Origin: a virus
Taxonomy: Duplodnaviria; Heunggongvirae; Uroviricota; Caudoviricetes
Reading direction: 5' to 3' (one strand)
IMG/VR virus record: IMGVR_UViG_2595698945_000001
Length of the DNA: 64,000 nucleotides
Part shown: positions 3,102-63,680 of the stretch, in pieces
Position numbering within the stretch: position 1 is the stretch's first letter
Layout of the letters: the number at the start of each line of letters is the position of its first letter
Notes under the pieces: generated by a model
Database searches by the model: none
The model's input: the letters and a program-made list of their open reading frames with translations, nothing else
Told to the model about the DNA's origin: nothing
Program-made: the position numbers and the translations under genes

Positions 3102-3107
3102 AACTCA

Positions 3108-3135
3108 TTTTGTAGGTAAGCGCTTACCTACAAAA
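3108..3135. terminator. Bidirectional hairpin terminator
   Basis: Perfect palindrome ttttgtaggtaagc/gcttacctacaaaa. Confidence 0.6.
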
Positions 3136-3193
3136 TACAATTAAATTGTGATATAAAACTGCCATCCCGATTTGACTTTTCATGGAGGAAATC

Positions 3194-6002: not shown

Positions 6003-6134
6003 ATCCCACGCTCCACATTCACCAAGTACCTATCATTTAACCTTTACACCGCAGCCGTAGGCATTTAGGCTATATCACATATAAGAAAACAAGTTGTTTC
6101 ATACGACAATAATTCACGCAAAGGGAACTCACCA

Positions 6135-6800
6135 ATGACCAAGATCATTGTGGTTGGCGGCACAAAAGGCGGCCCAGGCAAATCTACCGTTGCCCAGCAA
6201 ATTGCGGTATGCCTCAAAGTTAAAAAGAAAAAGAAGGTTCATGTAACCGATATTGATATTCAGCGCACAACTACGAGCTGGTGTGAAGATCGTCGCCAGA
6301 ATGACGATCTTGAGCTGATTCCCTTCGCATATGTCCAGGACGACATCGTCAAACATCTTAAATCGCTTCAGGGGCGCACCGATTATGTAGTGGTGGATGC
6401 TGGTGGCTTTGACTCCGAAATTCAGCGTCTGGCGATGCTAATGGCTGACGTGATTATCATCCCGCTGCGCCCTAAACGTCGTGATTTGAAATCCCTGCGC
6501 GATATCGACCCGATTATCGACAACGTTCGCAACGTGAACGAGACTGTGAAGATCCGCGCGGTAGTGAACCAGTGTCCGTCACTGCCTTCCCAGGTGTCAC
6601 GTATTCTGGCGGCGAAAGAAATTGTAGAGACATTCGGCATCGAGGCTGCGCCGGTTAACTTGTACAACCGTAACGTTTATGACGACGCGGAAGAGGCTGG
6701 TCGTTCTATCTTTGAAATGACTGGCGCCGAACGCGATAAGAAGGCAGAAGCCGAGTTCGAAGAGTTTGTAGATTACATCATGAGTCTGGAGGAAGAATAA
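6135..6800 (+). CDS. parA: ParA partition ATPase (type Ib, small ParA)
   Basis: Deviant Walker A GGTKGGPGKST. 221 aa. Followed by a small RHH protein. Confidence 0.8.
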   Translation: MTKIIVVGGTKGGPGKSTVAQQIAVCLKVKKKKKVHVTDIDIQRTTTSWCEDRRQNDDLELIPFAYVQDDIVKHLKSLQGRTDYVVVDAGGFDSEIQRLAMLMADVIIIPLRPKRRDLKSLRDIDPIIDNVRNVNETVKIRAVVNQCPSLPSQVSRILAAKEIVETFGIEAAPVNLYNRNVYDDAEEAGRSIFEMTGAERDKKAEAEFEEFVDYIMSLEEE

Positions 6801-9994: not shown

Positions 9995-10054
9995 TCCCCT
10001 ATCTGGCTTTTTTAGTATTAGAAAACAAATTATTTAAGCACCAAAGGAAAGCAC

Positions 10055-17111: not shown

Positions 17112-17414
17112 AGCAATTTGACCTCTTTCGACTGGTGGCTGGCAACCTACCTTGTAGCGGCCGGCTTCGGATATGCCTTTTACATTGGTCAGTTAATCGT
17201 AAAGCTACTGCTGATCAGATTTGCCAGCCATAAACGCATAGATGACGGTCTGTGGCGCCTGGGTTCTCTGCTGGAGACTCACTACGGCGAACTGAAGGAG
17301 AACGAAACTATCACTATTCAAGCGAAGCGTTTTACGGCCATCATCACGAGAACGCCGGAACAGAAGGTGAGCTTGATCAAAAAGATAGCAACTGAACGAG
17401 TTATAGAAAAATAA
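17109..17414 (+). CDS. Small membrane protein
   Basis: ATGA overlap. N-terminal TM. Confidence 0.4.
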   Translation: MSNLTSFDWWLATYLVAAGFGYAFYIGQLIVKLLLIRFASHKRIDDGLWRLGSLLETHYGELKENETITIQAKRFTAIITRTPEQKVSLIKKIATERVIEK

Positions 17415-18162
17415 GTATTTACTTACTTATCCATTATATATAAGATTCATTTGTTTTCGTTGAGACGCGACTGTTTGAACGTTAAATATAACTGCAAACG
17501 AAGATACGTACCTGGCAGTAGCCTAAGAAGCCAAACACCAGCGAGGTCAGTTTCCAGCCTCGTCACCGAAATGGGACACACTGAGCAAGTGTGATTGCAG
17601 AACGCAGGATAGGGCATGTTGCACCACCCATGCCCTATTCGATGAAGTAACAGGATGGGCGGTTGGTTTCCTCATTCCATTCCATCATCCCGGTTTCAGC
17701 CAGCTGACCGTCCATCCTGTTACGTCATTTCCATTACTTATGTCGTTTAATCTTGGGTTAAAAGCGGCGACGTAACCCGGCTGGCTTGGTTAGCCAGCGC
17801 ACAACGTTGAGGTCACTGTTTTTCTTTTAATCATACAGGTGATTCCACAGAGCTGTAGTGACTGATCAATATGTTGGGTCGAACATAAATCGGTTCAGTG
17901 GCCTCAACGTTGTGAAAGCAGGATTCTTTAACCCTCTGGTGAAATCATTGTTGCCTATGTAGCCCCTGGTTTCACAACATGGATGATTCCGTACATCCAA
18001 TAAGATCGAAGAGTCTGGCGGCCATCAACCGCCGAGAAGGATTCCAGATCTTCGCTCTATGTGAGCGAGCCACAAGCCTCGTCTGGCACTAACGTAAAGT
18101 GCAAGTTGCGGGAAAGTTCTTGGTTGCCTGGTTGTCCATGAACAAGTACCGCCGCGAAAAAT

Positions 18163-18237
18163 GATGGTGTAGCTCAGTGGTAGAGCGGTTGACTGTTAAT
18201 CAACTGGTCGGTGGTTCGAGTCCACCCACCATCGCCA
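18163..18237 (+). tRNA. tRNA-Asn (anticodon GTT), CCA encoded
   Basis: Cloverleaf built by hand: acceptor GATGGTG/CACCATC, D-arm gctc-agtggta-gagc, anticodon arm gttga-ctGTTaa-tcaac, T-arm ggtgg-ttcgagt-ccacc, discriminator G, then CCA. Confidence 0.8.
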
Positions 18238-18310
18238 ACATAGCGCTGAACGGTTTGGAGTTCGCCACCACCGTCCGCACAGTTTAATACCACCGCTCGC
18301 CCCCTCTAGT

Positions 18311-18345
18311 GCCTGTACGAACAGATTAGATACCTGTTCGTACAG
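18311..18345. promoter_or_regulatory. 12-bp perfect inverted repeat ctgtacgaacag-N9-ctgttcgtacag upstream of cobT-like gene
   Basis: Seen in sequence. Candidate operator. Confidence 0.4.
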
Positions 18346-18398
18346 TGATAAATTACGCACATCAGAAAACAAATTGTTTAAATAACAAGGAAATTCTC

Positions 18399-20744
18399 AT
18401 GTCCAAAGCCATGACCAGATCTGTGCTGAAAGAGGTACAGGACTTCCGCGACTGCGTAAAACGTGTTGTAGCGATGCTTTCAGGCAAGCAGATACCTGTT
18501 GCAGAGCGAGGCAATGAAGCATATGTCCGCTACAACCGGCGCGGCGAACCAGTGCTGGTAAACATCCCATCTATACCGGACGACGCATCACCAACCCTCA
18601 TGAACGCAGTACGTGGTTTTCTCGACCATGAGGTAGCCCATATCCTCTTTACTGATCCGACAGTCGCAATGAAGATGCGCGAGAGAGGAAAGGCTCCGTC
18701 TACCGGGCTTTGGAACGCGCTGGAAGACGTTTTTATTGAACGCAGAATGGGACAGGTATTCAACGGAACCCGTCGCAATTTGCTGGCCACACAGAACCTG
18801 GTGATCGACAAATACTTCAGAGGCAAAGTGTCAGAAGCGGTTTCAATCTGCCACGGCGACCAGCGCGAACTATTCCTGAAATTCTTCCTTTGCCCGGTCG
18901 TCCGCGCCTGGGATGGCCAAAGCCCTTTCATCGACTTTATGGAAGAACACTGGCACCTCATCGAGAAGCCGGTTGCCTTGCTCAAGGAGCACTGCATAGA
19001 CGTGGCCGTTCGCAATATGTCCAACACTGAGGACTGCGTGAAGGTCGCTGCTGCTATCGCGCAAATCATGCAGGATATGAAAGACAAGCCAGAGGGTAAA
19101 TTACCAGAGCTTAAATCATCTGCAAAAAAGCCGTCGAAGAGCAAAGACGAGTCTGAGGAAACACCAGAGTCAGGCGACGATCCGTCTCATGGTGAGTCTG
19201 CGCCAAAGCGTACCAAAGGCGAAGACGACGACAAGGAAGAGCAAGAAGATGATGTCTCAGAAGAGGAGGAGTCTGGGGATTCTGATTTGCCTGAATCAGT
19301 AGATAAGGACTTACCTATACACGATAAAGAGATTAGTGATATAGAAAGTAAATATACAGAAACAGGCGAAGATGAGTCGGTAGAGGCACCAGAATCCGAT
19401 GATGCCGGCATGGACTCAGGTGATTCTGATGACACTGGCGCTCCAACGCCTGGCGATGGCATTCGCGAAGATGCCGATGACTCCGATGGTTATGGCTCTG
19501 GCGCCGCTGGTGATGGGGATGGCGCTGACGGGGAAGACCCCGATGCTGGTCGTGGGGAGTCCGAAGAAGGCGAAAAAGAGGATGACACCGCCGATAACGT
19601 AGAAGGCGAAGGCAAAGAAAATGAGGATGGCGCTGAAGTGCCAGAAGACAGTGAGTCAGGCTTTGTTCCTGCGCCGGATGAAATGACTTTGGAGGACGCA
19701 CTCAAGGCGCTCGACGAGATGGAAGACGGAACCGGTGAAATGACCGAAGACGCACTGTCGGCCACCATCAGTAAGGAGCTTATGAGCACCTCGCTTTCTG
19801 AGTATCGCCCATACGATCGTTCATACGACTTTATCGGGCTAATTGATGAGGCTGAAGAGCATGTTAAGCGCACCAGAAAGACATTTGGCGCAATCCCAAT
19901 GCACTCACCGGTCGATCGCTACCGCATGGTTCCGGAAGGCAGAAAACTCTTTGAACTGAAAATCGAAAAACATCTGTCAGCAGGCGTTTCTTCGACTCTG
20001 GCCAAAGACCTGGAGCGAGCTATCGCCAGCCGCAACCGAGTTCAGTTTATCCCTGGTCAGAGACGTGGGCGGATACATGGCGCGAACCTGTATCGTCTGG
20101 CAATGAACGACGACCGTGTGTTCCGCAAGAAAGAAGACCACAGAGCGGTGAACGCGTGCGTCCAGCAGGTGATCGACTTATCCGGCTCAATGGGTGGCAG
20201 GAAGATTCAACTGGCACTCGCCAGCGCCTACACCATTGCGGATGCCCTAGATCGTATCAATGTGCCTAACATCATCACCGGCTTTACCACATTTGGTAGC
20301 CCTGATTATGAAATCATGTCGAAGCGCGGATTTACACGTTTCGAGGCGCTCATGCTGCCCATTATCAAAAACTGGAATGAGAAAGCTAACTCTCCAGAGA
20401 TCCGCGCCCGCATGGGCTGCGTGTGTGAGACGTTCCCCCTGCTCAATAACGTCGATGGTGAGAGCGTCGCGCAGCTGGCGACTCTGTTTGCAGGGCGAAT
20501 GGAGGACAAGAAGATCATGCTGGTTATGAGCGACGGGGCGCCATGTGCTGCAGGCGATGGGTTCCATCAGCATTTACGAACCGTCACCAAAGAAATTGAG
20601 ACGTTGAGTGACATCGATCTGATGGCTATCGGGATTCTGACCGACGAGCCACGACGTTTCTACAAAAATTACGCGCTGGTAAACAGCGTAGAAGAGTTAG
20701 GGCCGTCAGTTGTCACTGAGCTATCTCGTATCATTCTTGGGTAA
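18399..20744 (+). CDS. CobT-like protein: N-terminal CobT-type domain, ~200-aa poly-acidic linker, C-terminal vWA (MIDAS) domain
   Basis: ATG at 18399 after RBS AAGGAA. D/E-rich low-complexity region. vWA MIDAS motif VIDLSGSMGG. Confidence 0.65.
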   Translation: MSKAMTRSVLKEVQDFRDCVKRVVAMLSGKQIPVAERGNEAYVRYNRRGEPVLVNIPSIPDDASPTLMNAVRGFLDHEVAHILFTDPTVAMKMRERGKAPSTGLWNALEDVFIERRMGQVFNGTRRNLLATQNLVIDKYFRGKVSEAVSICHGDQRELFLKFFLCPVVRAWDGQSPFIDFMEEHWHLIEKPVALLKEHCIDVAVRNMSNTEDCVKVAAAIAQIMQDMKDKPEGKLPELKSSAKKPSKSKDESEETPESGDDPSHGESAPKRTKGEDDDKEEQEDDVSEEEESGDSDLPESVDKDLPIHDKEISDIESKYTETGEDESVEAPESDDAGMDSGDSDDTGAPTPGDGIREDADDSDGYGSGAAGDGDGADGEDPDAGRGESEEGEKEDDTADNVEGEGKENEDGAEVPEDSESGFVPAPDEMTLEDALKALDEMEDGTGEMTEDALSATISKELMSTSLSEYRPYDRSYDFIGLIDEAEEHVKRTRKTFGAIPMHSPVDRYRMVPEGRKLFELKIEKHLSAGVSSTLAKDLERAIASRNRVQFIPGQRRGRIHGANLYRLAMNDDRVFRKKEDHRAVNACVQQVIDLSGSMGGRKIQLALASAYTIADALDRINVPNIITGFTTFGSPDYEIMSKRGFTRFEALMLPIIKNWNEKANSPEIRARMGCVCETFPLLNNVDGESVAQLATLFAGRMEDKKIMLVMSDGAPCAAGDGFHQHLRTVTKEIETLSDIDLMAIGILTDEPRRFYKNYALVNSVEELGPSVVTELSRIILG

Positions 20745-20841
20745 TGGCTTTACCCGTAAAAATAAGTAATCACTTACTATACAGCCTAATATATTTATAT
20801 AAGATATACCCCACGAACGACAAACAGTAAGGAAAAAACAC

Positions 20842-22077
20842 ATGACCGCTACTGCACTACAGCAAGAAGAACATTTGCCGGAAGCCATCGTCTGCAAGTG
20901 GTGTGGCAAATCCTTTCATTACCTGAAATCCCATATCTCTATGGGCCGTTGCGAGAATATTCCTGAGTCTGCGAAGGGTCTGGACGTGGACGAAGTGGTG
21001 AAGATGTACACCTCTGCGTTTCCAGATGAACCAACGATCTCTCGCACGGCACTGGCCAAACTCAATGAGAAGCGTGCCGAAAAGCATTCAGGCGAAGGAA
21101 AAGTAGCGGAGATTAGCGCACATCCGGGCTACGCAGGAACGGTCGAATACAAGACCGAACTGGTGGCCGCGCACGAGCTGCTTGGCGTAACGATCAAAGA
21201 GCTGGGAACGCCACGCGGAAAGCCACTACAGGTGACAGTCAACGTCAACACGCCATATCCGGAGTTCGTACCGGAAGCGAAGAAGAACTATGTGTATGGC
21301 GACTTCGACCTGATTAAAGACATCTTCATGATGCTGGAAATCGGAATACCAGGCTATCTCTGGGGTCATGCAGGAACCGGTAAATCTTCTCTTCCTACGC
21401 AGCTATGCGCCCTGCTGAATCGACCACTGATCCGCGCCCAGCATACGGCGTCTATGGAAGAAGCACACGTTACAGGCCAGATCCTCGCTCGCGATGGCTC
21501 CACTTACTTCGAGCCTGGTTTGCTTGCGCTGGCGATGAAAAATGGCTGGGTGTACCTCGCTGATGAATATGACTTCGCGTTCCCACAGATTCTGGGTGTG
21601 TACCAGCCAGTTCTTGAAGGAGAGCCGCTGATCATCAAAGAGGCAACTCCGGACTGGCGCCGTATCACTCCGCATAAACGCTTTGCCTTCATTGGCACTG
21701 GCAACACTAACGGCTCTGGCGACGAAACGGGTCTCTATCAAGGTACGAACATCCAGAACGCGGCGAACTTCTCGCGCTTCGGCATTGTTTCGAACGTGAA
21801 GTACATGAGCACTAAGGCTGAAGTCAACATGCTGGTTGAGGCTGGCGTCATCCGCGAATACGCCGAGAAGATGGTGAAGTTCGCGAACCTTGTCCGTGAA
21901 GGTTATGAACAGCATCTGATCAGCCAGCCAATCGGCCCTCGCGAGCTGCTGCTGTCCGCAAAAATCGGAATGATGCGCGGTGATTTCTCTGCCGGCATCG
22001 AAAAGTCGTTTATCAATAAACTTCCATCCACGTCTGCACAGGCGGCGCGTGAAGTGGTTCAGAAGATCTTCGGTTAA
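20842..22077 (+). CDS. CobS-like / MoxR-family AAA+ ATPase
   Basis: Walker A GHAGTGKSS. AAA+ core. N-terminal CxxC...H...C element. Adjacent to its vWA partner. Confidence 0.65.
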   Translation: MTATALQQEEHLPEAIVCKWCGKSFHYLKSHISMGRCENIPESAKGLDVDEVVKMYTSAFPDEPTISRTALAKLNEKRAEKHSGEGKVAEISAHPGYAGTVEYKTELVAAHELLGVTIKELGTPRGKPLQVTVNVNTPYPEFVPEAKKNYVYGDFDLIKDIFMMLEIGIPGYLWGHAGTGKSSLPTQLCALLNRPLIRAQHTASMEEAHVTGQILARDGSTYFEPGLLALAMKNGWVYLADEYDFAFPQILGVYQPVLEGEPLIIKEATPDWRRITPHKRFAFIGTGNTNGSGDETGLYQGTNIQNAANFSRFGIVSNVKYMSTKAEVNMLVEAGVIREYAEKMVKFANLVREGYEQHLISQPIGPRELLLSAKIGMMRGDFSAGIEKSFINKLPSTSAQAAREVVQKIFG

Positions 22078-22257
22078 TCGTGCGTAAAGGATGTTTCGGC
22101 TCTCTTATCGCAGCGTCTGAAACTGGCCGGGCTTGTCTGGCGTGTCCGGATAGGCCCGAGTGCCACCAGTCAGCCAAAGAGGTTGCGATTTCGATGTATG
22201 GGAAGTTCGTTGGCTTCCCCAATGACAAAATCAAGAAAACCAGAAAGGTAAAAACAC

Positions 22258-25200
22258 ATGAAGGCTCTGATGGTCAGAACTGACTTCTCCCTGGGAGAGT
22301 CGGCTCTAAAAGCAGAAAACGCGGTGAAAATCGCGAGAGACGCTGGCTACACCGCTGTCATTTCCGCTGACAGCATGAACATTGCCAGTGTGATCCCCCT
22401 GCAGCGTGCCGCTGGCGACGACATGGCGGTTATTTGTGGTGTTAAGCTGAATGTGGTCGACGATCCGACATACGAGCACCGCGCCCGCCTGGCGAAAGAG
22501 TCAGGAGGATGTATGGAATCATTGGTGCGTGATCGCAGCTACTGCTTCACGGCACTGATAAAGAATGAGCAAGGTTATCGCGACGTGTGCGAACTGATGA
22601 CCTTAGCCAACAAGCGCGAGCAATTCTACTTTGTCCCGCGTCTGGCACTTGACCAGCTGGCGGCCGCATATGCCAAAGGCAACATCATCCTGCTGACGTC
22701 CGACATTGGCAGTGTATTCCAGCGCCGGGACTTCGCAAAGATTATCGGGACGCTGGTGACAGCTGGAGGACGCGATAACTTCTACAGCGTGGTTTATCCG
22801 CACCCTACCCCATTCTACGACCAGATTAACGTCCGGGCGATGAAAGTGGCGAGCGCACTGAAAATAGAGCCAGTGGCGTTCTATCCCGCTTATTATGAAG
22901 CGGTCGACGACGCTGACATTAAAGACATTGCGCACATGGTTACGAACAACATCAAAATCGACCAGCCGCATCGTCTGCGTATTCCCCACCAGCGAGATAA
23001 CGCCGTTAATGGTCGCCGCCATCTCCTTGAAGCGCTGAAAGCCTTCTCCGTTCGAATGGATGTGCCGGTAACAGCTGCAATGGCCTCAACAACGCAGGAC
23101 ACCATTATTGAAGCCTGCACATGGCGCTGGCATGAATTGCCACCAGCACTGCCCAAGATGGCAGATGACGAGCCTGCAACGCTGATGAAGCTGGCTGTCG
23201 CGGGGCTACGCAAGCGTCTTACTACCAAAGAATTTGGCTACACACCACCGGCTTCTGAGCACCGTGTGTATGTTGATCGCCTGAAGTACGAAATGGACAC
23301 GCTGACCCGCCTGGGCTTCTGTGGCTACTTCCTGATGGTGCGCGACCTGATGAATCACAGCCGTGAAACTGGCATTCCTGTCGGGCCAGGTCGTGGTTCC
23401 TCTGCCGGTTCTCTGGTGGCGTGGTGCATCGGCATAACCAACGTCGATCCTATCCGTCACGGTCTTCTGTTTGAGCGTTTCATCAACCCTGAACGTCTCG
23501 ACTTACCGGATGCGGATCTGGACTTCAGCCAGGCACGTCGTCATGAGGTGATCGAGTATCTGAATGAACGCTATGGCGAAGATTACGTTGCCGGTATTCC
23601 GAACTTCACCTATCTTGGCGCTGCCTCTGCGCTGCGTGACACCGCGCGTATTTACGGTGTCGATGCTGCGGATATGGCGGTATCCAAAGAGTTCAAGAAT
23701 CTTGAGGACGATAGCCTGTCTCTGGAAGAGCTGCGCGAGCAACTGGCCAGCCTGGACAAATACGCCACGAAATACCCGGAAGCGTTCAAAGCGGCGTGTA
23801 AGCTGCAAAGCTTGATGCGTGGTTTTGGTCGTCACGCTGCTGGGATGATCGTCGCTGGCGTTCCACTGGTAGAGCGCACGCCCGTCGAGCTGCGTGGCAA
23901 CGCTCGCTGTATTGCGTTCGATAAACGTTACTGCGAGGCGATGGGGCTGATTAAGCTGGACGTTCTCGGTCTGGCAACGCTCGATCTGCTGGATAGCGCG
24001 AAACGCTACATCAAAGAGAGTACCGGGGAAGACATCAATCTCGATGCTATTCCACTGGACGATCGTAAGGTTCTGGATGGGTTCGCTGCAGGGTACACGC
24101 AGGGCGTATTCCAGCTGGAGTCCGGCCCCATGCGCAAGCTGCTTAAAGATCTGGGCGGTGGCATTGAGCCAATGAGCTTCAAAACCGTTGTCGCCACGAC
24201 CGCACTCTTCCGACCTGGCCCGATCCAATCCGGCATGTTGGACGACTATGTCTCCGTGGCCAAAGGCTTCATGGCTCCACAGTCGCTGCACCCGGTACTG
24301 GACGAACTTACCGCGGAAACAAACGGCGTGATTCTGTATCAGGAACAGACGATGAACGCGACACGATTGCTGGCTGGCTTCACGATGGCCGAAGCTGATG
24401 GTGTGCGTAAAGCGATCGGTAAAAAGGATATGGAAAAGATGAAGAGCATGGGTGAGAAGTTCGTCGTTCAGGCTCAAGCTGGTTGGATCGACGTTGAGAT
24501 GGAAGACGGCACCACGCAGCGTATTCACCGCGCGGAACACTTCAAATGTGAGGACGGCGCACTGCGGACGGTAGAAGAAGCGCTGGAGGCTGGTGTGAAA
24601 TTACCTATGGCTGCTGTACGCGTTACAGGGTCACAACCGGGATTGTCTGAGACGAAAGCGAAGGAGATCTGGGATGCCTTCGAGAAGAACGGTGCGTACC
24701 AATTCAACAAATCACACAGTGTTGCTTATTCTTTAATCAGCTATCAGTCTATGTGGTTAAAGACACATTACCCTGCTGAGTTCTTCGCTGCTGCGCTCAC
24801 CATTCTGGGCGAGGATAAGCACCAGGGGCTGGTTAAGGATGCGCTGACCTATGGCATTCGCGTATTGCCACCAGACGTTAACGTGTCATCTAACCGAATT
24901 GAGATCCGCACGCTGGAAGACGGCAGCCAGGTTCTGTATTCGCCATTCTCTGCTGTGAAAGGCTGCTCTGAGAATGGTTGCCAGGCCATCATGAGAGCGC
25001 GTGAGAAAGTTGGCGGTAAATTCAAGTCACTTGAGCAATTTGAGGAAGCGGTCGAGAAGCGTGCGTGTAACAGCCGGGTACGCGAGTCACTGCAAAAAGT
25101 AGGTGCGTTCGCATCGATAGAGTCAGGCAGTCTGCCAGCGACAGATCCGGAACGTCTGCGCGACCAGGCAGAGTTGATGGGCAATCTGGTGATCGACGCT

Positions 25201-25776
25201 GTAAAAGCCTCTCGACCGTTCGAGATGAACCCTAAGCGCTCTGCCGAGGTGAATGTACTGATGACTCGCATGGCGGCCGAAATGGGTCTGGGAGACGACC
25301 TGATTCGCCCAAGCATTGGCATTAAGCCGAAAATCATGGTCATTCTGGACAACGCGAACGGCAATGATGGGCGTACCGGCTACTTCATGGAGAACGGCTA
25401 CGACGACTTTAAGGCGAAGTTGCTTACTGCAGGCGATCTGCGCATGGGCGATCTCTACGTCACAGGCGTGTGCAAAAAGGTGAAGGACAAAGAGAAGGAC
25501 TACACCAAAGACGAGATCGGCCAGTTCACCGACTTTATGCGTGAAGAGATCAATCTGGTGCGTCCGACCTATGTGCTGACGTGTGGCAGCCGGGCGACGT
25601 CACTCTTCAACAACAAAAGCAAACCATCCGACCTGGTTGGACGCAAAGAGTATCTGCCAGAGCTGGATGTGACCGTTTTCTACGGATTTAACCCGAACAT
25701 TTTGTACTTTCGCCCAGAGGAAGGCGAAAAGCTGGAAGCAATTCTGGCAGAGGTAGCGGAGACTATTAGCAAATGA
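22258..25776 (+). CDS. dnaE: DNA polymerase III alpha subunit (DnaE-type), degenerate PHP domain
   Basis: 1172 aa. Pol III alpha palm/fingers motifs (GPGRGSSAGSLVAWCIGIT, LFERFINPER, KLDVLGL). OB-fold C-terminus. Confidence 0.85.
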   Translation: MKALMVRTDFSLGESALKAENAVKIARDAGYTAVISADSMNIASVIPLQRAAGDDMAVICGVKLNVVDDPTYEHRARLAKESGGCMESLVRDRSYCFTALIKNEQGYRDVCELMTLANKREQFYFVPRLALDQLAAAYAKGNIILLTSDIGSVFQRRDFAKIIGTLVTAGGRDNFYSVVYPHPTPFYDQINVRAMKVASALKIEPVAFYPAYYEAVDDADIKDIAHMVTNNIKIDQPHRLRIPHQRDNAVNGRRHLLEALKAFSVRMDVPVTAAMASTTQDTIIEACTWRWHELPPALPKMADDEPATLMKLAVAGLRKRLTTKEFGYTPPASEHRVYVDRLKYEMDTLTRLGFCGYFLMVRDLMNHSRETGIPVGPGRGSSAGSLVAWCIGITNVDPIRHGLLFERFINPERLDLPDADLDFSQARRHEVIEYLNERYGEDYVAGIPNFTYLGAASALRDTARIYGVDAADMAVSKEFKNLEDDSLSLEELREQLASLDKYATKYPEAFKAACKLQSLMRGFGRHAAGMIVAGVPLVERTPVELRGNARCIAFDKRYCEAMGLIKLDVLGLATLDLLDSAKRYIKESTGEDINLDAIPLDDRKVLDGFAAGYTQGVFQLESGPMRKLLKDLGGGIEPMSFKTVVATTALFRPGPIQSGMLDDYVSVAKGFMAPQSLHPVLDELTAETNGVILYQEQTMNATRLLAGFTMAEADGVRKAIGKKDMEKMKSMGEKFVVQAQAGWIDVEMEDGTTQRIHRAEHFKCEDGALRTVEEALEAGVKLPMAAVRVTGSQPGLSETKAKEIWDAFEKNGAYQFNKSHSVAYSLISYQSMWLKTHYPAEFFAAALTILGEDKHQGLVKDALTYGIRVLPPDVNVSSNRIEIRTLEDGSQVLYSPFSAVKGCSENGCQAIMRAREKVGGKFKSLEQFEEAVEKRACNSRVRESLQKVGAFASIESGSLPATDPERLRDQAELMGNLVIDAVKASRPFEMNPKRSAEVNVLMTRMAAEMGLGDDLIRPSIGIKPKIMVILDNANGNDGRTGYFMENGYDDFKAKLLTAGDLRMGDLYVTGVCKKVKDKEKDYTKDEIGQFTDFMREEINLVRPTYVLTCGSRATSLFNNKSKPSDLVGRKEYLPELDVTVFYGFNPNILYFRPEEGEKLEAILAEVAETISK

Positions 25777-32462: not shown

Positions 32463-32582
32463 TTTCCGTATTATCACCAACAAGAAAACAAATTGGTTAC
32501 TAATACGGAATTACCATCCGTAAAAGTACAAAGTGACAACGCCACATAGTTGTTCGGCAACGGAATGAGAAGGAGATCGGGA

Positions 32583-34464: not shown

Positions 34465-35065
34465 ACCACTGCGGTGAGTAGCCAGCTCACCGCGTGCGTA
34501 TCCGACTCATAACCACTGTGGTGAGTAGAACACCATTCAGGTATGCAATCCAACCACTGTAGTGAGTAAAACGACTGCCGTGATATCCGGTATCCACTGT
34601 AGTGAGCAAAGTAGCGATTATCGACGTCGCCATCCACTGTAGGGAGTAAACAGGCGTTCATTCGCAGCAAACAACCACTATAGCGAGTGATGGAATGCGC
34701 TCTCCAGCGGGTATCCACTATGGAGAGTAAACCTTCACTGTTTTCAGCGGATATCTACTCACTACAGTGGTTAGTAAACCCAGCCAACCGATTCTGCTCT
34801 CCACAGTGGATAGCCAATAACGAAGGGAACAACGATAACCACTATAGAGAGTGGGTTTAACAAGATACCCAGTGACCACTAACCTCGCAGCCCTTGATTC
34901 ATCTAGGTTTGTAACCACTAACATTTATTTCGTTGTTTGCGTGCCACTGCCTACAGTGGTTACTCTTCGGTTGCTGTTACTCACTACAGTGGATAGCGGA
35001 TTCCAGATAAACAAAAGGCTCACTACAGTGGATAGTGAGCCTTTCTACTCTCTACAGTGGTTGGG
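34465..35065. repeat. Iteron array (about 14 copies of CCACTGTAGTGAGTA / TACTCACTACAGTGG-type repeats) distal to repA
   Basis: Repeats read directly from the sequence: ccactgcggtgagta, ccactgtggtgagta, ccactgtagtgagta, ccactatagcgagtg, tactcactacagtgg, ctcactacagtggatag and others, in both orientations. Confidence 0.8.
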
Positions 35066-45794: not shown

Positions 45795-45901
45795 TGAGCG
45801 TGGGGAGAAATCCCCACCTTTTCATTGAGTTGAGCACCTTGTTTAAACCAATAAGATAACAATTTGTTTAAAGCCATTCGATAACATTCAGAGGGAAACA
45901 C

Positions 45902-56407: not shown

Positions 56408-56425
56408 TTAAAACAAATTGTTTAG
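56408..56425. promoter_or_regulatory. Motif B palindrome copy upstream of rha
   Basis: ttaaaacaaattgtttag. Confidence 0.5.
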
Positions 56426-58103: not shown

Positions 58104-58120
58104 GAAAACAATTTGTTTAA
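58104..58120. promoter_or_regulatory. Motif B palindrome copy
   Basis: caccaacaagaaaacaatttgtttaa. The same extended context occurs at 32471-32499. Confidence 0.5.
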
Positions 58121-61219: not shown

Positions 61220-61254
61220 AAGGCCACTATTGTGGCCTTTAACAATTTGTTTTC
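61220..61254 (+). promoter_or_regulatory. Composite element: ggccacta-N-tgtggcc hairpin plus Motif B
   Basis: aaggccactattgtggcctttaacaatttgttttc. The same composite occurs at 63242-63277. Confidence 0.5.
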
Positions 61255-63241: not shown

Positions 63242-63277
63242 AAGGCCACTAATTGTGGCCTTAAACAATTTGTTTTA
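63242..63277 (+). promoter_or_regulatory. Composite element: hairpin plus Motif B
   Basis: aaggccactaattgtggccttaaacaatttgtttta. Confidence 0.5.
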
Positions 63278-63493: not shown

Positions 63494-63680
63494 CGTTTCC
63501 TCCTTTCACATGGGTCAAATCAGGTCTCAAACGTTGTCGTTTTCCATGTATGTGCAATTACCAAAATCTCAAGTGCCGAAACAAATTGTTTTCACCCCCT
63601 GGTTATTCCCTTAATCCGTAAAGTTGACCGGTATAATTACAAATACCACTGTTTATATATACAGTATCGAGGGCGGAAAA

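Follow-up and report, generated by a model that had tools for sequence, protein, structure and literature searches.

The analysed window (the whole stretch of 64,000 nucleotides) is Salmonella phage SSU5 (NC_018843 / JQ965645), with 100% identity across positions 18100-22300; window positions equal SSU5 record positions minus 24362. SSU5 is a Salmonella phage-plasmid. The locus holds a CobT-like gene, SSU5_049, and a CobS-like gene, SSU5_050, both already annotated in RefSeq under a 'cobalt chelatase' label (Table 1). A sequence-only reading had listed the two genes, a tRNA-Asn and an inverted repeat, all of which are present in the SSU5 sequence. Its interpretation stood in part: the homology, the intact motifs, the absence of CobN and the general frame of a protein remodeller held, whereas the puzzle proved not to be new, and neither the 'extreme' character of the acidic tract nor the relevance of the tRNA was borne out. 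The points most relevant to function were missed, namely an HExxH motif in CobT, a Ros/MucR-like finger in CobS and the placement of the pair in a replication module.

Table 1. Features of the cobT-cobS locus of SSU5 in window coordinates.
Feature	Position	Strand	Remarks
tRNA-Asn (GTT)	18163..18237	+	ARAGORN; Rfam tRNA 76 bits
Inverted repeat ctgtacgaacag-N9-ctgttcgtacag	18313-18324 / 18334-18345	+	12/12 complementary
Hairpin, arm-loop-arm: CTGTACGAACAG ATTAGATAC CTGTTCGTACAG	18313..18345	+	perfect 12 bp, 9-nt loop
Putative sigma-70 promoter of the cobT-cobS unit	18326..18354	+	predicted from the sequence
Putative -35-like element TTAGAT	18326-18331	+	17-nt spacer to -10
Putative extended -10 TG	18346-18347	+	
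Putative -10 TAAATT	18349-18354	+	
Palindrome AAAACAAATTGTTTA	18366..18380	+	copy of operator-like motif, between putative -10 and RBS
RBS AAGGAA	18387..18392	+	6 nt ahead of ATG 18399; from sequence
CobT-like SSU5_049	18399..20744	+	781 aa; zincin-like N-domain, acidic disordered linker, 'shaft', VWA/MIDAS domain
CobT N-domain, aa 1-232	18399..19094	+	helix, three-stranded sheet, helical bundle
HEVAH, aa 77-81	18627..18641	+	HExxH zinc-metallopeptidase motif
NALEDVFIE, aa 106-114	18714..18740	+	E109, D110, E114
Acidic low-complexity linker, aa about 233-466	19095..19796	+	about 230 aa, 36% D/E, net charge -66
Basic segment RNRVQFIPGQRRGRIHGANLYRLAMNDDRVFRKKE, aa 545-579	20031..20135	+	gap-free alignment to Brucella CobT 'shaft'
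MIDAS DLSGSMGG, aa 593-600	20175..20198	+	
MIDAS, NNVDGES	20445-20465	+	
MIDAS, SDGAP	20529-20543	+	
CobS-like AAA+ ATPase SSU5_050	20842..22077	+	411 aa; Pfam AAA_5 E 4.5e-15
CobS N-terminal Ros/MucR-like zinc-finger domain	20875..21063	+	C18-x2-C21-x9-H31-x5-C37, then YxxxFPxxPxxS
CobS Walker A GHAGTGKS	21364-21387	+	
CobS Walker B DE	within 21556-21573	+	
CobS sensor-1 N	within 21694-21714	+	
CobS Arg finger	within 21766-21783	+	
CobS sensor-2 R	within 21931-21945	+	
SSU5_051, small 4-Cys ORF	22080..22283	+	67 aa; between CobS and Pol III alpha; phrog_6337
DNA polymerase III alpha subunit SSU5_052	22258..25776	+	conserved downstream neighbour

The repeat ahead of the pair is as complementary as had been reported, but it is not merely upstream, as its loop holds the -35 region of the putative promoter. 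Folded as RNA, the region reaches -24.5 kcal/mol (z = -4.95 against shuffles). The window has three perfect inverted repeats whose arms measure 12 bp or more and whose loops span 3-20 nt, against 0.1 expected, and the 103-kb SSU5 genome has no other copy of this 12-mer. The hairpin is kept in 36/36 distinct SSU5-like upstream sequences; base pairing holds in 97.9% of the cells of a 16-sequence alignment, which shows two compensatory pairs (TA to CG and AT to GC) and one-sided changes that are compatible with G.U. The Xenorhabdus and Morganella elements carry equivalent hairpins with TTGACT in the loop, and relatives have TTGACT-16/17 nt-TATTAT at this location. As the hairpin loop of the relatives is the -35 box, the repeat reads as a conserved hairpin or operator built around the -35 region of the putative promoter. 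The TGnTAnnnT pattern is retained in all SSU5-like lineages; a consensus promoter scanner did not call the cobT-cobS promoter, because its -35 is weak. The palindrome that follows belongs to a motif with 16 strand-matches in the window (0.39 expected), located at about 10 intergenic sites, which stand ahead of parA, dnaB, cobT, nrdB, a methyltransferase and others, and it is conserved among SSU5-like relatives. The tRNA-Asn does precede the pair, but only in SSU5 are they adjacent: most SSU5-like relatives have 3-5 kb between the tRNA and the repeat, and the tRNA is an incidental neighbour outside the conserved unit.

The CobT open reading frame was listed as 18345-20744; its real start is the ATG at 18399, in agreement with the RBS before it and with RefSeq. 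The proposed HMM check of CobT returned PF06213 (CobT, E 2e-37, aa 11-304), along with PF11775 (CobT_C, E 2.5e-112, aa 574-781). The best matches of the pair among solved structures are CobS and CobT of Brucella melitensis (9ujv/9uka), subunits of the aerobic class I cobaltochelatase CobNST (EC 6.6.1.2), with which SSU5 shares the two-gene module, the domain order of CobT and the catalytic residues of the AAA+ ATPase. SSU5_049 matches Brucella CobT at E 6e-20 as a single sequence and at 2.7e-64 with the family profile. Its AlphaFold model has a pLDDT of 79.5, with both domains above 90. The MIDAS motif, described earlier as intact, is so together with its two further segments, and all five counterparts of Brucella D422/S424/S426/N518/D546 are kept. 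In Brucella the CobT shaft inserts into the CobS ring (bioRxiv 10.64898/2026.07.21.739949); by analogy, aa 545-579 of SSU5 CobT, where G553, G557, L564 and F575 are conserved, would act as the shaft. Foldseek places the VWA domain near that of NorD (5.8e-9) and the MIDAS domain of Rea1/MDN1, matches that fit the MoxR-vWA remodeller frame of the sequence-only reading. Both of these domains dock into AAA+ rings, in line with the reading of CobT as an adaptor on a ring.

In the HMM check of SSU5_050 Pfam recognised the AAA+ domain, and the CobS equivalog of NCBIfam gave 82 bits against a cut-off of 558. All of its ATPase motifs are intact. The best solved relative is Brucella CobS (9ujv, E 1.7e-25 over aa 142-411), and CbbQ, NorQ and midasin are further sequence matches. 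Its pore loop, at 4 residues fewer than in Brucella, is acidic (EE), and the shaft of its partner is more basic. A zinc finger sits in an extension of 140 aa at the N-terminus; at the other end the protein lacks the last ~13 residues and stops about 13 residues ahead of the Brucella helix that binds CobT_N, which leaves that contact putative in SSU5. The finger shares with Ros/MucR (PF05443; Ros87, PDB 2jsp) the pattern C-x2-C-x9-H-x4/5-H/C, with CGxxF/H..LK.H, followed by 'T.EEY'. Homologues of 36-100% identity keep its ligands, the fourth alternating between C and H; in the enterobacterial lineage the fourth is Cys, unlike in Ros/MucR. The Pfam ROS_MUCR match recurs (E 7e-4, 0.011, 0.042, 0.18) and is below the gathering score in every sequence; the CobS family profile matches Ros87 at E 1.2e-3 over the finger and 'TPEEY'. 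In contrast to Ros/MucR, the finger is fused to an AAA+ ATPase rather than to the MucR oligomerisation domain. It is missing, or cannot be recognised, in the CobS of the Rhizobium phage, of Xenorhabdus and Morganella, of cyanophages and of ICP2.

The N-domain of CobT has the layout of Brucella CobT_N ('M48C-like'). H77, E78 and H81 are 99-100% conserved among 130 N-domains, HExxH is found in 128/129 full-length CobT relatives, and phages of four further lineages keep it (a Rhizobium phage, Roseobacter phage CRP-810, ICP2 and S-PM2). Brucella CobT, the only authentic CobT compared for this loss, has S81-M82-A83-L84-R85 (SMALR) at the site. E109, D110 and E114 (100%, 99% and 100% conserved) are candidate residues for the third ligand of the zinc, as in gluzincins; E..xE is retained in Brucella CobT as well. 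The M48/M56 gluzincins (Ste24/ZMPSTE24, BepA, BlaR1) and ArdC/SprT-type proteases are listed among the closest systems. Both His of HExxH are lost, and the pair is retained, in Pseudomonas nickie/ZY21-like and Stenotrophomonas BUCTxx99-like phages, from which it follows that proteolysis is dispensable to the core function of the family. The poly-acidic linker, with both strings quoted earlier (aa 339-354 and 390-411), has a pLDDT below 50 over aa 239-419 and is predicted to be disordered. Its length varies from 140 to 246 aa in SSU5-like elements despite flanking domains that are 97-99% identical. It is 2.6 times longer than that of Brucella, which is about 90 aa (bioRxiv 10.64898/2026.07.21.739949). 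Such a linker was called extreme, but long acidic linkers are general in CobT proteins (median 180 aa, range 69-331, 37% D/E).

By sequence, SSU5_049 and SSU5_050 are true homologues of Brucella CobT and CobS, as the resemblance noted earlier implied, that nonetheless score 7-9 times under the equivalog cut-offs (for CobT, 84 bits against 759). The reported lack of cobN and of a cobalamin pathway extends to the entire genome: neither CobN nor a cobalamin gene is among the 131 annotated SSU5 features. The pair could still be a genuine chelatase motor that hijacks a CobN-type (or ChlH/HmuS-type) subunit of the host and boosts tetrapyrrole metalation, for instance for B12. The homology is clear, and the ATPase, the shaft and the MIDAS have all remained intact. 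Related phages infect some hosts in which the aerobic CobN route does operate (Rhizobium, Roseobacter, Pseudomonas). The hypothesis is a published one, from Liu et al. 2021 and the literature on cyanophage auxiliary metabolic genes (PMC8651126, PMC5083919). However, the hosts of SSU5 are without the CobN route: Salmonella relies for cobalt insertion on CbiK, of class II, and E. coli does not synthesise B12 (PMC7689651). Nor does the phage encode a B12-dependent enzyme, its ribonucleotide reductase being the B12-independent class Ia NrdAB; the pair occurs also in the V. cholerae phage ICP2; and a chelatase would have no use for the conserved peptidase site or the putative DNA-binding finger. 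Together with the low equivalog scores, these points make cobalt insertion highly improbable.

The pair lies among ligase, polymerase, SSB and recombinase genes. The order CobT-CobS-(1-2 kb)-PolIIIa is found in about 22/31 genome loci of several phyla, on elements of about 100 kb, and also in phages ZY21, BUCTxx99 and RHph_N1_10; the larger arrangement DnaB-primase-ligase...CobT-CobS-PolIIIa is conserved in Gamma-, Beta- and Alphaproteobacteria, a cyanobacterium and Desulfosarcina. In the T4-like cyanophage S-PM2 the pair stands between gp46 and gp45, and in ICP2 it precedes primase, helicase and PolA. SSU5_051 shares its N-terminal GCFG-x11-13-C-x2-C-x5-6-C with proteins of 180-200 aa encoded at the equivalent place in ZY21, BUCTxx99 and L088; it is a member of the syntenic block with a putative functional tie to CobST. 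Shared middle-gene timing or inheritance as one block may also account for the placement in the replication module.

The puzzle is not new: phage pairs of this kind have been published as viral cobST (Liu et al. 2021, PMC8651126), as MoxR with metallopeptidase-vWA (Iyer et al. 2021, PMC7824862), as ICP2 ORF41/42 (PMC3037004) and as cyanophage 'cobS' and 'peptidase'. They resemble SSU5 in having CobT before CobS, HExxH and MIDAS, and replication-gene neighbours; the SSU5 supergroup differs from them in the Ros/MucR-like CobS finger and in being locked to Pol III alpha, neither of which we found described in the literature searched. For the identical architecture of MoxR-type ATPase and metallopeptidase-vWA in T4-like jumbo phages, a role in virion assembly was proposed, the MoxR-vWA pair of Acidianus two-tailed virus serving as the model (PMC7824862), and the sequence-only reading had offered the same option; the pair would fold or assemble structural proteins, which the peptidase domain would trim. 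The conserved position within the replication module disfavours this. The SSU5 structural genes occupy 0.1-26 kb of the record, 17 kb away; the replication placement recurs in Nickievirus, BUCTxx99, Rhizobium phages, ICP2 and S-PM2, and also in about 22 genome loci; the operator motif is common to the pair and dnaB, parA and nrdB, not late genes; and the zinc finger points to DNA. We thus regard virion assembly as quite improbable, and both published proposals, CobN hijack and virion assembly, fit the SSU5 element poorly.

The tight and ancient synteny with Pol III alpha agrees with a metal-cofactor insertase that works without proteolysis, the pair opening a client metalloenzyme (PHP-domain Pol III alpha or the di-iron NrdB) for loading. 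By fold the C-domain comes closest to the VWA domains of NorD in NorQD complexes, lineages without HExxH retain the pair, and there are precedents in NorQD (iron into NorB), CoxDE and CobST itself, the MoxR/VWA family being used repeatedly in metal-centre insertion (bioRxiv 10.64898/2026.07.21.739949). Against it, the pair occurs without Pol III alpha in T4-like cyanophages, whose polymerase is gp43, and in ICP2, which has a family A polymerase, and the near-invariance of HExxH/ED..xE needs another cause, though the site could bind metal for delivery. An insertase is, in our judgement, unlikely. NorQ-NorD, CbbQ-CbbO, RavA-ViaA and Rea1/Midasin share with SSU5 a ring ATPase and a MIDAS adaptor that docks a pore element and grips a client, the clients being known metalloenzymes or ribosome assembly factors; unlike in SSU5, these adaptors have no peptidase domain and the ATPases no DNA-binding finger.

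As to the client, a special case would be a host-takeover or counter-defence protease that recognises a host protein, for example a nucleoid silencer or a defence nuclease, and destroys it instead of serving replication as such. Ros/MucR fingers bind AT-rich DNA that silencers occupy (PMC7710501), and SSU5, living as a plasmid, is exposed to host silencing. Yet PADLOC gave no match, nor was there another defence-related one, and the pair is a stable core gene set with synteny over phyla, whereas counter-defence genes are usually patchy and fast-turning. This role appears rather improbable.

We consider there to be about an even chance that SSU5_049/050 is a virus-adapted CobS-CobT motor and adaptor that serves not in cobalt insertion but, likely, in the ATP-driven remodelling or cleavage of a DNA-associated protein in replication. 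By analogy with the Brucella cryo-EM structures, six CobS subunits would form the ATP-hydrolysing ring, on which one or a few copies of CobT would dock, the basic shaft threading the pore. The long acidic linker would allow the N-domain and the VWA/MIDAS domain to clamp a client protein where CobN sits in the real enzyme. Two departures from the chelatase may redirect the machine. With the complete HExxH...ED..xE site in the CobT N-domain, a client held by the MIDAS could be cleaved or, failing that, gripped in the manner of a peptide, and the Ros/MucR-type finger at the N-terminus of CobS should put the ring on DNA. The pair would be transcribed from its own promoter, embedded in the conserved hairpin, and, being under a palindromic operator that also precedes dnaB, parA and nrdB, should be co-expressed with the replication genes. 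The pair is thus best read not as a chelatase but as a replication-linked AAA+/MIDAS/metallopeptidase remodeller.

Window positions 18100-22300 are 100% identical to Salmonella phage SSU5 (JQ965645 / NC_018843; record position - 24362 gives the window position), a 103-kb siphovirus with a plasmid lifestyle as well. A close SSU5 relative is harboured by E. coli K-12. The tRNA-Asn, the inverted repeat, the CobT-like gene and the CobS-like gene that the sequence-only reading had claimed were all found in the sequence, and the two acidic peptides that it quoted and the MIDAS motif DLSGSMGG were located where expected in CobT. The long cobT reading frame has a formal GTG start at 18345; the real start is the ATG at 18399, preceded by AAGGAA and used by RefSeq as well. 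RefSeq annotates both SSU5_049 (CobT-like) and SSU5_050 (CobS-like) as "porphyrin biosynthesis". Profile searches confirmed CobT (PF06213, 2e-37, aa 11-304; CobT_C PF11775, 2.5e-112, aa 574-781) and identified an AAA_5 ATPase on the CobS side (Pfam E 4.5e-15). Earlier papers describe the viral gene pair, its occurrence in phages that lack CobN and the fusion of peptidase and vWA, and the finding as first stated is thus already known. What appears to be new is the measured extent to which the active-site motif is conserved when set beside authentic CobT, which has lost it, a Ros/MucR-like finger on CobS, a Pol III alpha linkage that spans phyla, and a promoter-in-hairpin arrangement. We found no literature on functional work with cobT/cobS of SSU5, pMT1 or pHCM2.

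Features of the cobT-cobS region and related elements, in window coordinates
Feature	Coordinates	Strand	Length	Remark
Perfect inverted repeat	3107-3137
Palindrome site	6086-6100
tRNA-Lys(TTT)	6123-6203	-		Adjoins palindrome 6086-6100 and parA start
Palindrome site	10022-10036
tmRNA_permuted match, sub-threshold	17407-17535			20 bits vs 47, E 0.1
Stretch upstream of tRNA-Asn	17415-18162		~750 nt	No ORF > 56 aa
tRNA-Asn(GTT)	18163-18237
Homology break	~18280-18312			Versus relatives' loci L006, L007, L017, L020, L022-L024, others
Inverted repeat upstream of cobT	18313-18345			CTGTACGAACAG-N9-CTGTTCGTACAG
Palindrome site	18366-18380			Between cobT -10 and RBS
CobT-like ORF (SSU5_049)	18399-20744		781 aa
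CobS-like ORF (SSU5_050)	20842-22077		411 aa	AAA_5 ATPase by Pfam
SSU5_051	22080-22283		67 aa
Palindrome site	32485-32499
Perfect inverted repeat	35014-35044
Palindrome site	45856-45870
Palindrome site	56410-56424
Palindrome site	58105-58119
Palindrome site	61239-61253
Palindrome site	63262-63276
Palindrome site	63578-63592

The closest solved relatives of the two proteins are subunits of the authentic cobaltochelatase, namely Brucella melitensis CobS (E 1.7e-25) and Brucella CobT (E 6e-20 with the single sequence, 2.7e-64 with the family profile). Both SSU5 proteins score below the cut-offs of the corresponding NCBIfam equivalogs (CobT, 84.2 bits against 759.05 for TIGR01651; CobS, 82.3 bits against 558.55 for TIGR01650). 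The reference anatomy is the cryo-EM of Brucella CobS, CobST and CobSTN in a 2026 preprint (bioRxiv 10.64898/2026.07.21.739949). There, CobS is a hexamer ring. CobT begins with an M48C-peptidase-like N-domain; ~90 disordered residues then lead to a shaft (Q373-R413), which enters the ring, and to a VWA domain carrying the MIDAS. CobN sits between the two CobT domains near the MIDAS. The domain layout of SSU5 CobT is the same, its shaft aligning gap-free to Q373-R413, and SSU5 CobS ends ~13 residues before the C-terminal helix by which Brucella CobS binds CobT_N. From this shared anatomy we infer that the SSU5 proteins would assemble like CobS6-CobT.

The motor and its partner are complete in their motifs. 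SSU5 CobS retains Walker A (GHAGTGKS), Walker B (D241-E242), sensor 1, arginine finger and sensor 2, with N288, R312 and R367 intact; the aligned Brucella counterparts are G71-S78, D141-E142, N186, R210 and R271. All five MIDAS residues of CobT are present (D593, S595, S597, N684/D686, D712). An AAA_5 ATPase gene beside a VWA gene, both with complete motifs, is the arrangement of MoxR-type AAA+/VWA-MIDAS pairs, and a Foldseek search with the CobT C-domain matched the NorD VWA of NorQD complexes (5.8e-9) and the Rea1/MDN1 MIDAS (7e-8). AlphaFold models the N- and C-domains of CobT confidently and aa 239-419 as disordered. With the whole model, Foldseek matched only the VWA domain, the structure library being older than the CobT entries; the N-domain was therefore modelled separately (pLDDT 92), and shows a helix, a three-strand sheet and a helical bundle in the Brucella order. 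The acidic tract, which had been singled out as exceptional, lies within the family range in both length and D/E content: the SSU5 linker has ~234 aa (36% D/E, net charge -66), and linkers across the CobT family have a median of 180 aa (range 69-331) with 37% D/E. Among SSU5-like elements it varies from 140 to 246 aa although the flanking domains are 97-99% identical. The linker is a length-tolerant acidic tether, like that of authentic CobT, and no special trait of SSU5. We also considered the AAA_5 matches in Staphylococcus and Listeria Herelleviridae as members of the same system and rejected them; they are weak (24-28% identity), stand in a different context and have no annotated CobT-like neighbour.

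 None of the 131 annotated SSU5 features is a CobN or cobalamin gene, and the ribonucleotide reductase of the phage is of the B12-independent NrdAB type. On the host side, according to the literature, Salmonella relies on CbiK, a class II enzyme, for early cobalt insertion, and B12 synthesis is absent from E. coli (PMC7689651). The published idea that viral CobST hijacks the CobN of the host (PMC8651126) is thus left with neither partner nor substrate among hosts of SSU5-like elements. On the equivalog scores, the annotation of SSU5 and this literature, SSU5 CobS-CobT is probably not a cobaltochelatase in this setting, and we consider a true chelatase motor highly unlikely. The orthologues in Escherichia phage Cyrano (OV696614.1) are labelled "cobalamin synthetase" and "dimethylbenzimidazole phosphoribosyltransferase", a mis-annotation by name collision with the unrelated CobS/CobT of Salmonella nomenclature.

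The N-domain of SSU5 CobT carries HEVAH at aa 77-81, within FLDHEVAHILFTD (aa 74-86). Domain searches with the N- or C-domain gave only close, mostly fragmentary proteins, and a HMMER search of 1.84 billion representatives with CobT aa 1-264 was used instead; it returned 1093 relatives at E <= 1e-3. Among the best 150 of these, HExxH is present in 128 of the 129 full-length proteins, and D76, H77, E78, H81, E109, D110 and E114 are 99-100% conserved in the alignment. HExxH with a downstream Glu is the gluzincin pattern, for which the invariant E109 and E114 are candidate ligands. The motif is present also in Rhizobium phage RHph_N1_10, Roseobacter phage CRP-810, Vibrio phage ICP2 (HECYH) and the "Peptidase" gene of S-PM2. 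At the HExxH position Brucella CobT, the one authentic sequence in the comparison, reads S-M-A-L-R, with the downstream E..xE retained. By these motifs the authentic subunit is predicted to be a dead peptidase, unlike the viral family. Liu et al. 2021 held the "peptidase" annotation to be a mistake (PMC8651126); the conservation of the motif indicates that it is not. Our scan of bacterial genome contigs used an HExxH peptide as its pattern, by which its hits carry HExxH by construction and authentic CobT could not be sampled. Both histidines are lost, and the gene pair is kept, in Pseudomonas nickie/ZY21-like and Stenotrophomonas BUCTxx99-like phages. With the motif gone from two lineages, remodelling rather than cleavage may be the indispensable activity. 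Loss of HExxH as a marker of CobN-bearing hosts was ruled out, since the Rhizobium and Roseobacter phages retain it. A hypothetical protein in a Salmonella Typhimurium record of the phage collection (AB571791.1, 31535-31732) matches CobT aa 56-128 at 45% identity, a stretch confined to the HExxH region, which suggests that a stand-alone peptidase module may also exist. A host-takeover or counter-defence protease is a rival reading that we hold to be unlikely; the PADLOC defence models gave no match.

A MoxR ATPase with a vWA protein bearing an N-terminal metallopeptidase has been described in T4-like jumbo phages, where a role in virion assembly was proposed (Iyer et al. 2021, PMC7824862). SSU5 has this combination, a zincin-like HExxH domain N-terminal to a vWA domain and beside a MoxR ATPase in a tailed-virus genome, and shares the architecture with S-PM2, ICP2, the Rhizobium phage and CRP-810. 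The structural genes of SSU5 form a block separate from cobT-cobS, and we regard a virion-assembly chaperone or protease as unlikely. The SSU5 order is DnaB helicase, primase, ..., DNA ligase, small ORFs, tRNA, CobT, CobS, a 67-aa 4-Cys protein, Pol III alpha, SSB, exonuclease and recombinase. An arrangement that leads from ligase through CobT and CobS to Pol III alpha, with one or two small genes ahead of the polymerase, is kept in Pseudomonas ZY21, Stenotrophomonas BUCTxx99, Rhizobium RHph_N1_10, one prophage-like contig and ~22 of 31 bacterial-genome loci, many of them on contigs of 96-118 kb. The taxa include Enterobacterales, Xenorhabdus, Photobacterium, Massilia, Paraburkholderia, Magnetospirillum, Paracoccus, Phormidium and Desulfosarcina. 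Two unrelated phage types likewise have the pair among replication genes: in S-PM2 it lies between gp46 and the gp45 clamp, and in ICP2 it comes before the genes for primase, helicase and a family A polymerase. Three replisome types share the CobS-CobT neighbourhood; the link is one of guilt by association, and a block inherited as such could account for some of it.

Several further observations concern the neighbourhood. Contigs of 96-118 kb with the DnaB-primase-ligase-CobT-CobS-Pol III alpha module come from Yersinia pestis, Xenorhabdus, Morganella, Massilia, Roseospira, Phyllobacterium, Ancylobacter, Paracoccus, Magnetospirillum, Chitinibacter and one cyanobacterium; given such varied hosts, the SSU5-like supergroup reaches far beyond Enterobacteria. 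CobS precedes CobT in MAGs of Planctomycete and Oligoflexales origin, and likewise in Desulfosarcina. SSU5_051 shares an N-terminal GC(F/Y)G-x11-13-C-x2-C-x5-6-C with proteins of 180-200 aa that lie directly upstream of Pol III alpha in ZY21 (L083:9311-9853), the prophage-like contig (L088:12484-13095) and BUCTxx99 (L082:9904-10500), one of them annotated "recombinase"; by comparison with these distant relatives it looks cut down to its Cys-rich portion. Next after CobS comes a small sigma-70 region-2-like protein in BUCTxx99 (L082:9195-9902), the prophage-like contig (L088:11829-12491) and the Rhizobium phage (L092:10868-11503); SSU5 has no such protein.

In SSU5 CobS, 140 residues precede the AAA+ core, and aa 18-37 (CKWCGKSFHYLKSHISMGRC) form a predicted zinc finger with C18, C21, H31 and C37 as ligands; distant homologues read C-x2-C-x9-H-x4-H. 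The pattern C-x2-C-x9-H-x4/5-H/C, followed by Y...(F/Y)P..P..S, is kept down to 36% identity, with C7, C10, G11, H15 and H20 invariant in the finger alignment (A7), and its bearers belong to Gamma-, Beta- and Alphaproteobacteria and one cyanobacterium. ROS_MUCR was the recurrent best Pfam match on the finger (E 7e-4, 0.011, 0.042 and 0.18). The scores of four homologues against PF05443 (12.3, 14.3, 16.2 and 20.0 bits) all fall below the gathering score of 25.4, and a profile of 13 diverse sequences matched Ros87 (PDB 2jsp) at E 1.2e-3 (21.5 bits) over the finger and "TPEEY". Ros/MucR fingers are DNA binders (PMC7710501). No description of a Ros/MucR-CobS fusion was found in the searched literature. 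The finger is absent or unrecognisable in CobS of the Rhizobium phage, Xenorhabdus, Morganella, cyanophage and ICP2. CobS of CRP-810 (L093:1827-3680) has 617 aa, with an N-terminal extension of ~350 aa for which no match was obtained; its gene precedes CobT at the genome end, among early genes.

The repeat upstream of cobT is not a chance occurrence. Three inverted repeats in the window pair perfectly over 12 bp or more across a loop of 3-20 nt, against 0.1 in shuffles, and the RNA fold of the region has z = -4.95. Upstream regions from 75 SSU5-like loci reduced to 36 distinct sequences, all of which have the repeat; with 16 sequences aligned, 97.9% of cells are paired. In Klebsiella-type lineages two pairs are changed on both sides (TA to CG, AT to GC), and three pairs have one-sided changes that stay G.U on the + strand; independent events are few overall. 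The homology block common to relatives begins exactly at the repeat. The sequence-only reading had placed the gene pair behind the tRNA; in relatives 3-5 kb absent from SSU5 lie between tRNA and repeat, and the adjacency is therefore incidental. This variable stretch before cobT appears to be the single insertion locus near ligase reported for resistance genes in SSU5-like elements (PMC9600943). The sub-threshold tmRNA_permuted match is the sole RNA match in the stretch upstream of tRNA-Asn, an area in which relatives have extra tRNA-like copies, and Rfam found nothing besides tRNA in 17300-18450.

Directly after the right arm stands TGATAAATT, an extended -10 of which TGnTAnnnT is kept in all lineages. 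The putative SSU5 promoter is TTAGAT (2/6)-17 nt-TAAATT (4/6) with the extended -10 TG. In Xenorhabdus and Morganella elements (CobT 37-53% identical), the 9-nt hairpin loop contains (A/C)TTGACT(A/G)C, TATTAT or TATTGT follows 16-17 nt after TTGACT, and an A-run and a T-run (T7-8) flank the hairpin like a bidirectional terminator. Given this A-run, stem and T7-8 run, the ancestral repeat may have been a terminator; the SSU5 stem runs on into UGAUAAAUU, with no intrinsic-terminator call by the scanner. The simplest reading is a putative hairpin that would end upstream transcription and hold the cobT promoter inside it: the loop would supply the -35 and the right arm the spacer. The data would fit an operator symmetric about the -35 just as well. 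The consensus scan called no promoter, with terminator calls at background level, and so the promoter reading is drawn from the comparison with relatives. Two other candidates were rejected: a LexA box, as the arms give CTGT-N4-ACAG instead of CTGT-N8-ACAG, and membership in an operator family, the 12-mer being unique in the genome.

A second element, the palindrome AAAACAAATTGTTTA, follows the cobT -10. Its form AAAACAA(A/T)TTGTTT(A/T) recurs between genes at ~10 places in the window, with 16 strand-matches where 0.39 were expected, ahead of parA, dnaB, cobT, nrdB, a DNA methyltransferase, ant and others. In most cases a -10-like hexamer precedes the site by 10-12 nt and the RBS follows closely. 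The palindrome looks like the operator of a phage-wide repressor, comparable to the C1 operators of P1, with AAAACAAATTGTTT as candidate protein-binding site. As it is shared with other genes, cobT-cobS appear to be part of a phage-wide regulon, which is presumably repressed in the plasmid state. The conserved synteny with Pol III alpha would also fit a metal-centre insertase for a phage enzyme, for example the PHP-domain polymerase or NrdB, which we judge unlikely.

Taken together, the anatomy speaks most for a DNA-placed CobS ring with CobT as adaptor and peptidase, expressed with the replication genes, and we put its chances at about even. The CobS ring would be put on DNA by its fingers. 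CobT would act as adaptor, with the client gripped at the MIDAS, in the position that CobN takes in the chelatase, and offered to a live site for zinc-dependent peptide cleavage, and the two proteins would be expressed together with the replication genes. A DNA-tethered AAA+ unfoldase-protease working with or ahead of the phage replisome, and stripping or cleaving DNA-bound or cross-linked proteins (nucleoid silencers, stalled complexes, defence proteins), is a quite improbable proposal. It would be a viral counterpart of eukaryotic p97/Cdc48-SPRTN/Wss1, built on a recycled chelatase motor. If true, it would explain "cobS" as a near-universal core gene of marine myo-cyanophages, whose genomes carry ~1 copy each with a function never demonstrated (PMC9983427, PMC5083919).

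Viromes routinely count "cobS" as a vitamin-B12 auxiliary metabolic gene (AMG). SSU5 is a genetically tractable enterobacterial phage-plasmid and thereby practical for settling the function of viral cobS/cobT, and because its host is unable to use a CobN-type chelatase, any cobS/cobT phenotype there would be independent of B12. The peptidase site, the finger and the Pol III alpha adjacency are concrete handles for assays and mutant design. Should the pair prove to be a remodeller or protease linked to replication, much "AMG" annotation would need correcting, and the viral genes would be a clean case of a metabolic motor re-used for protein or DNA work.
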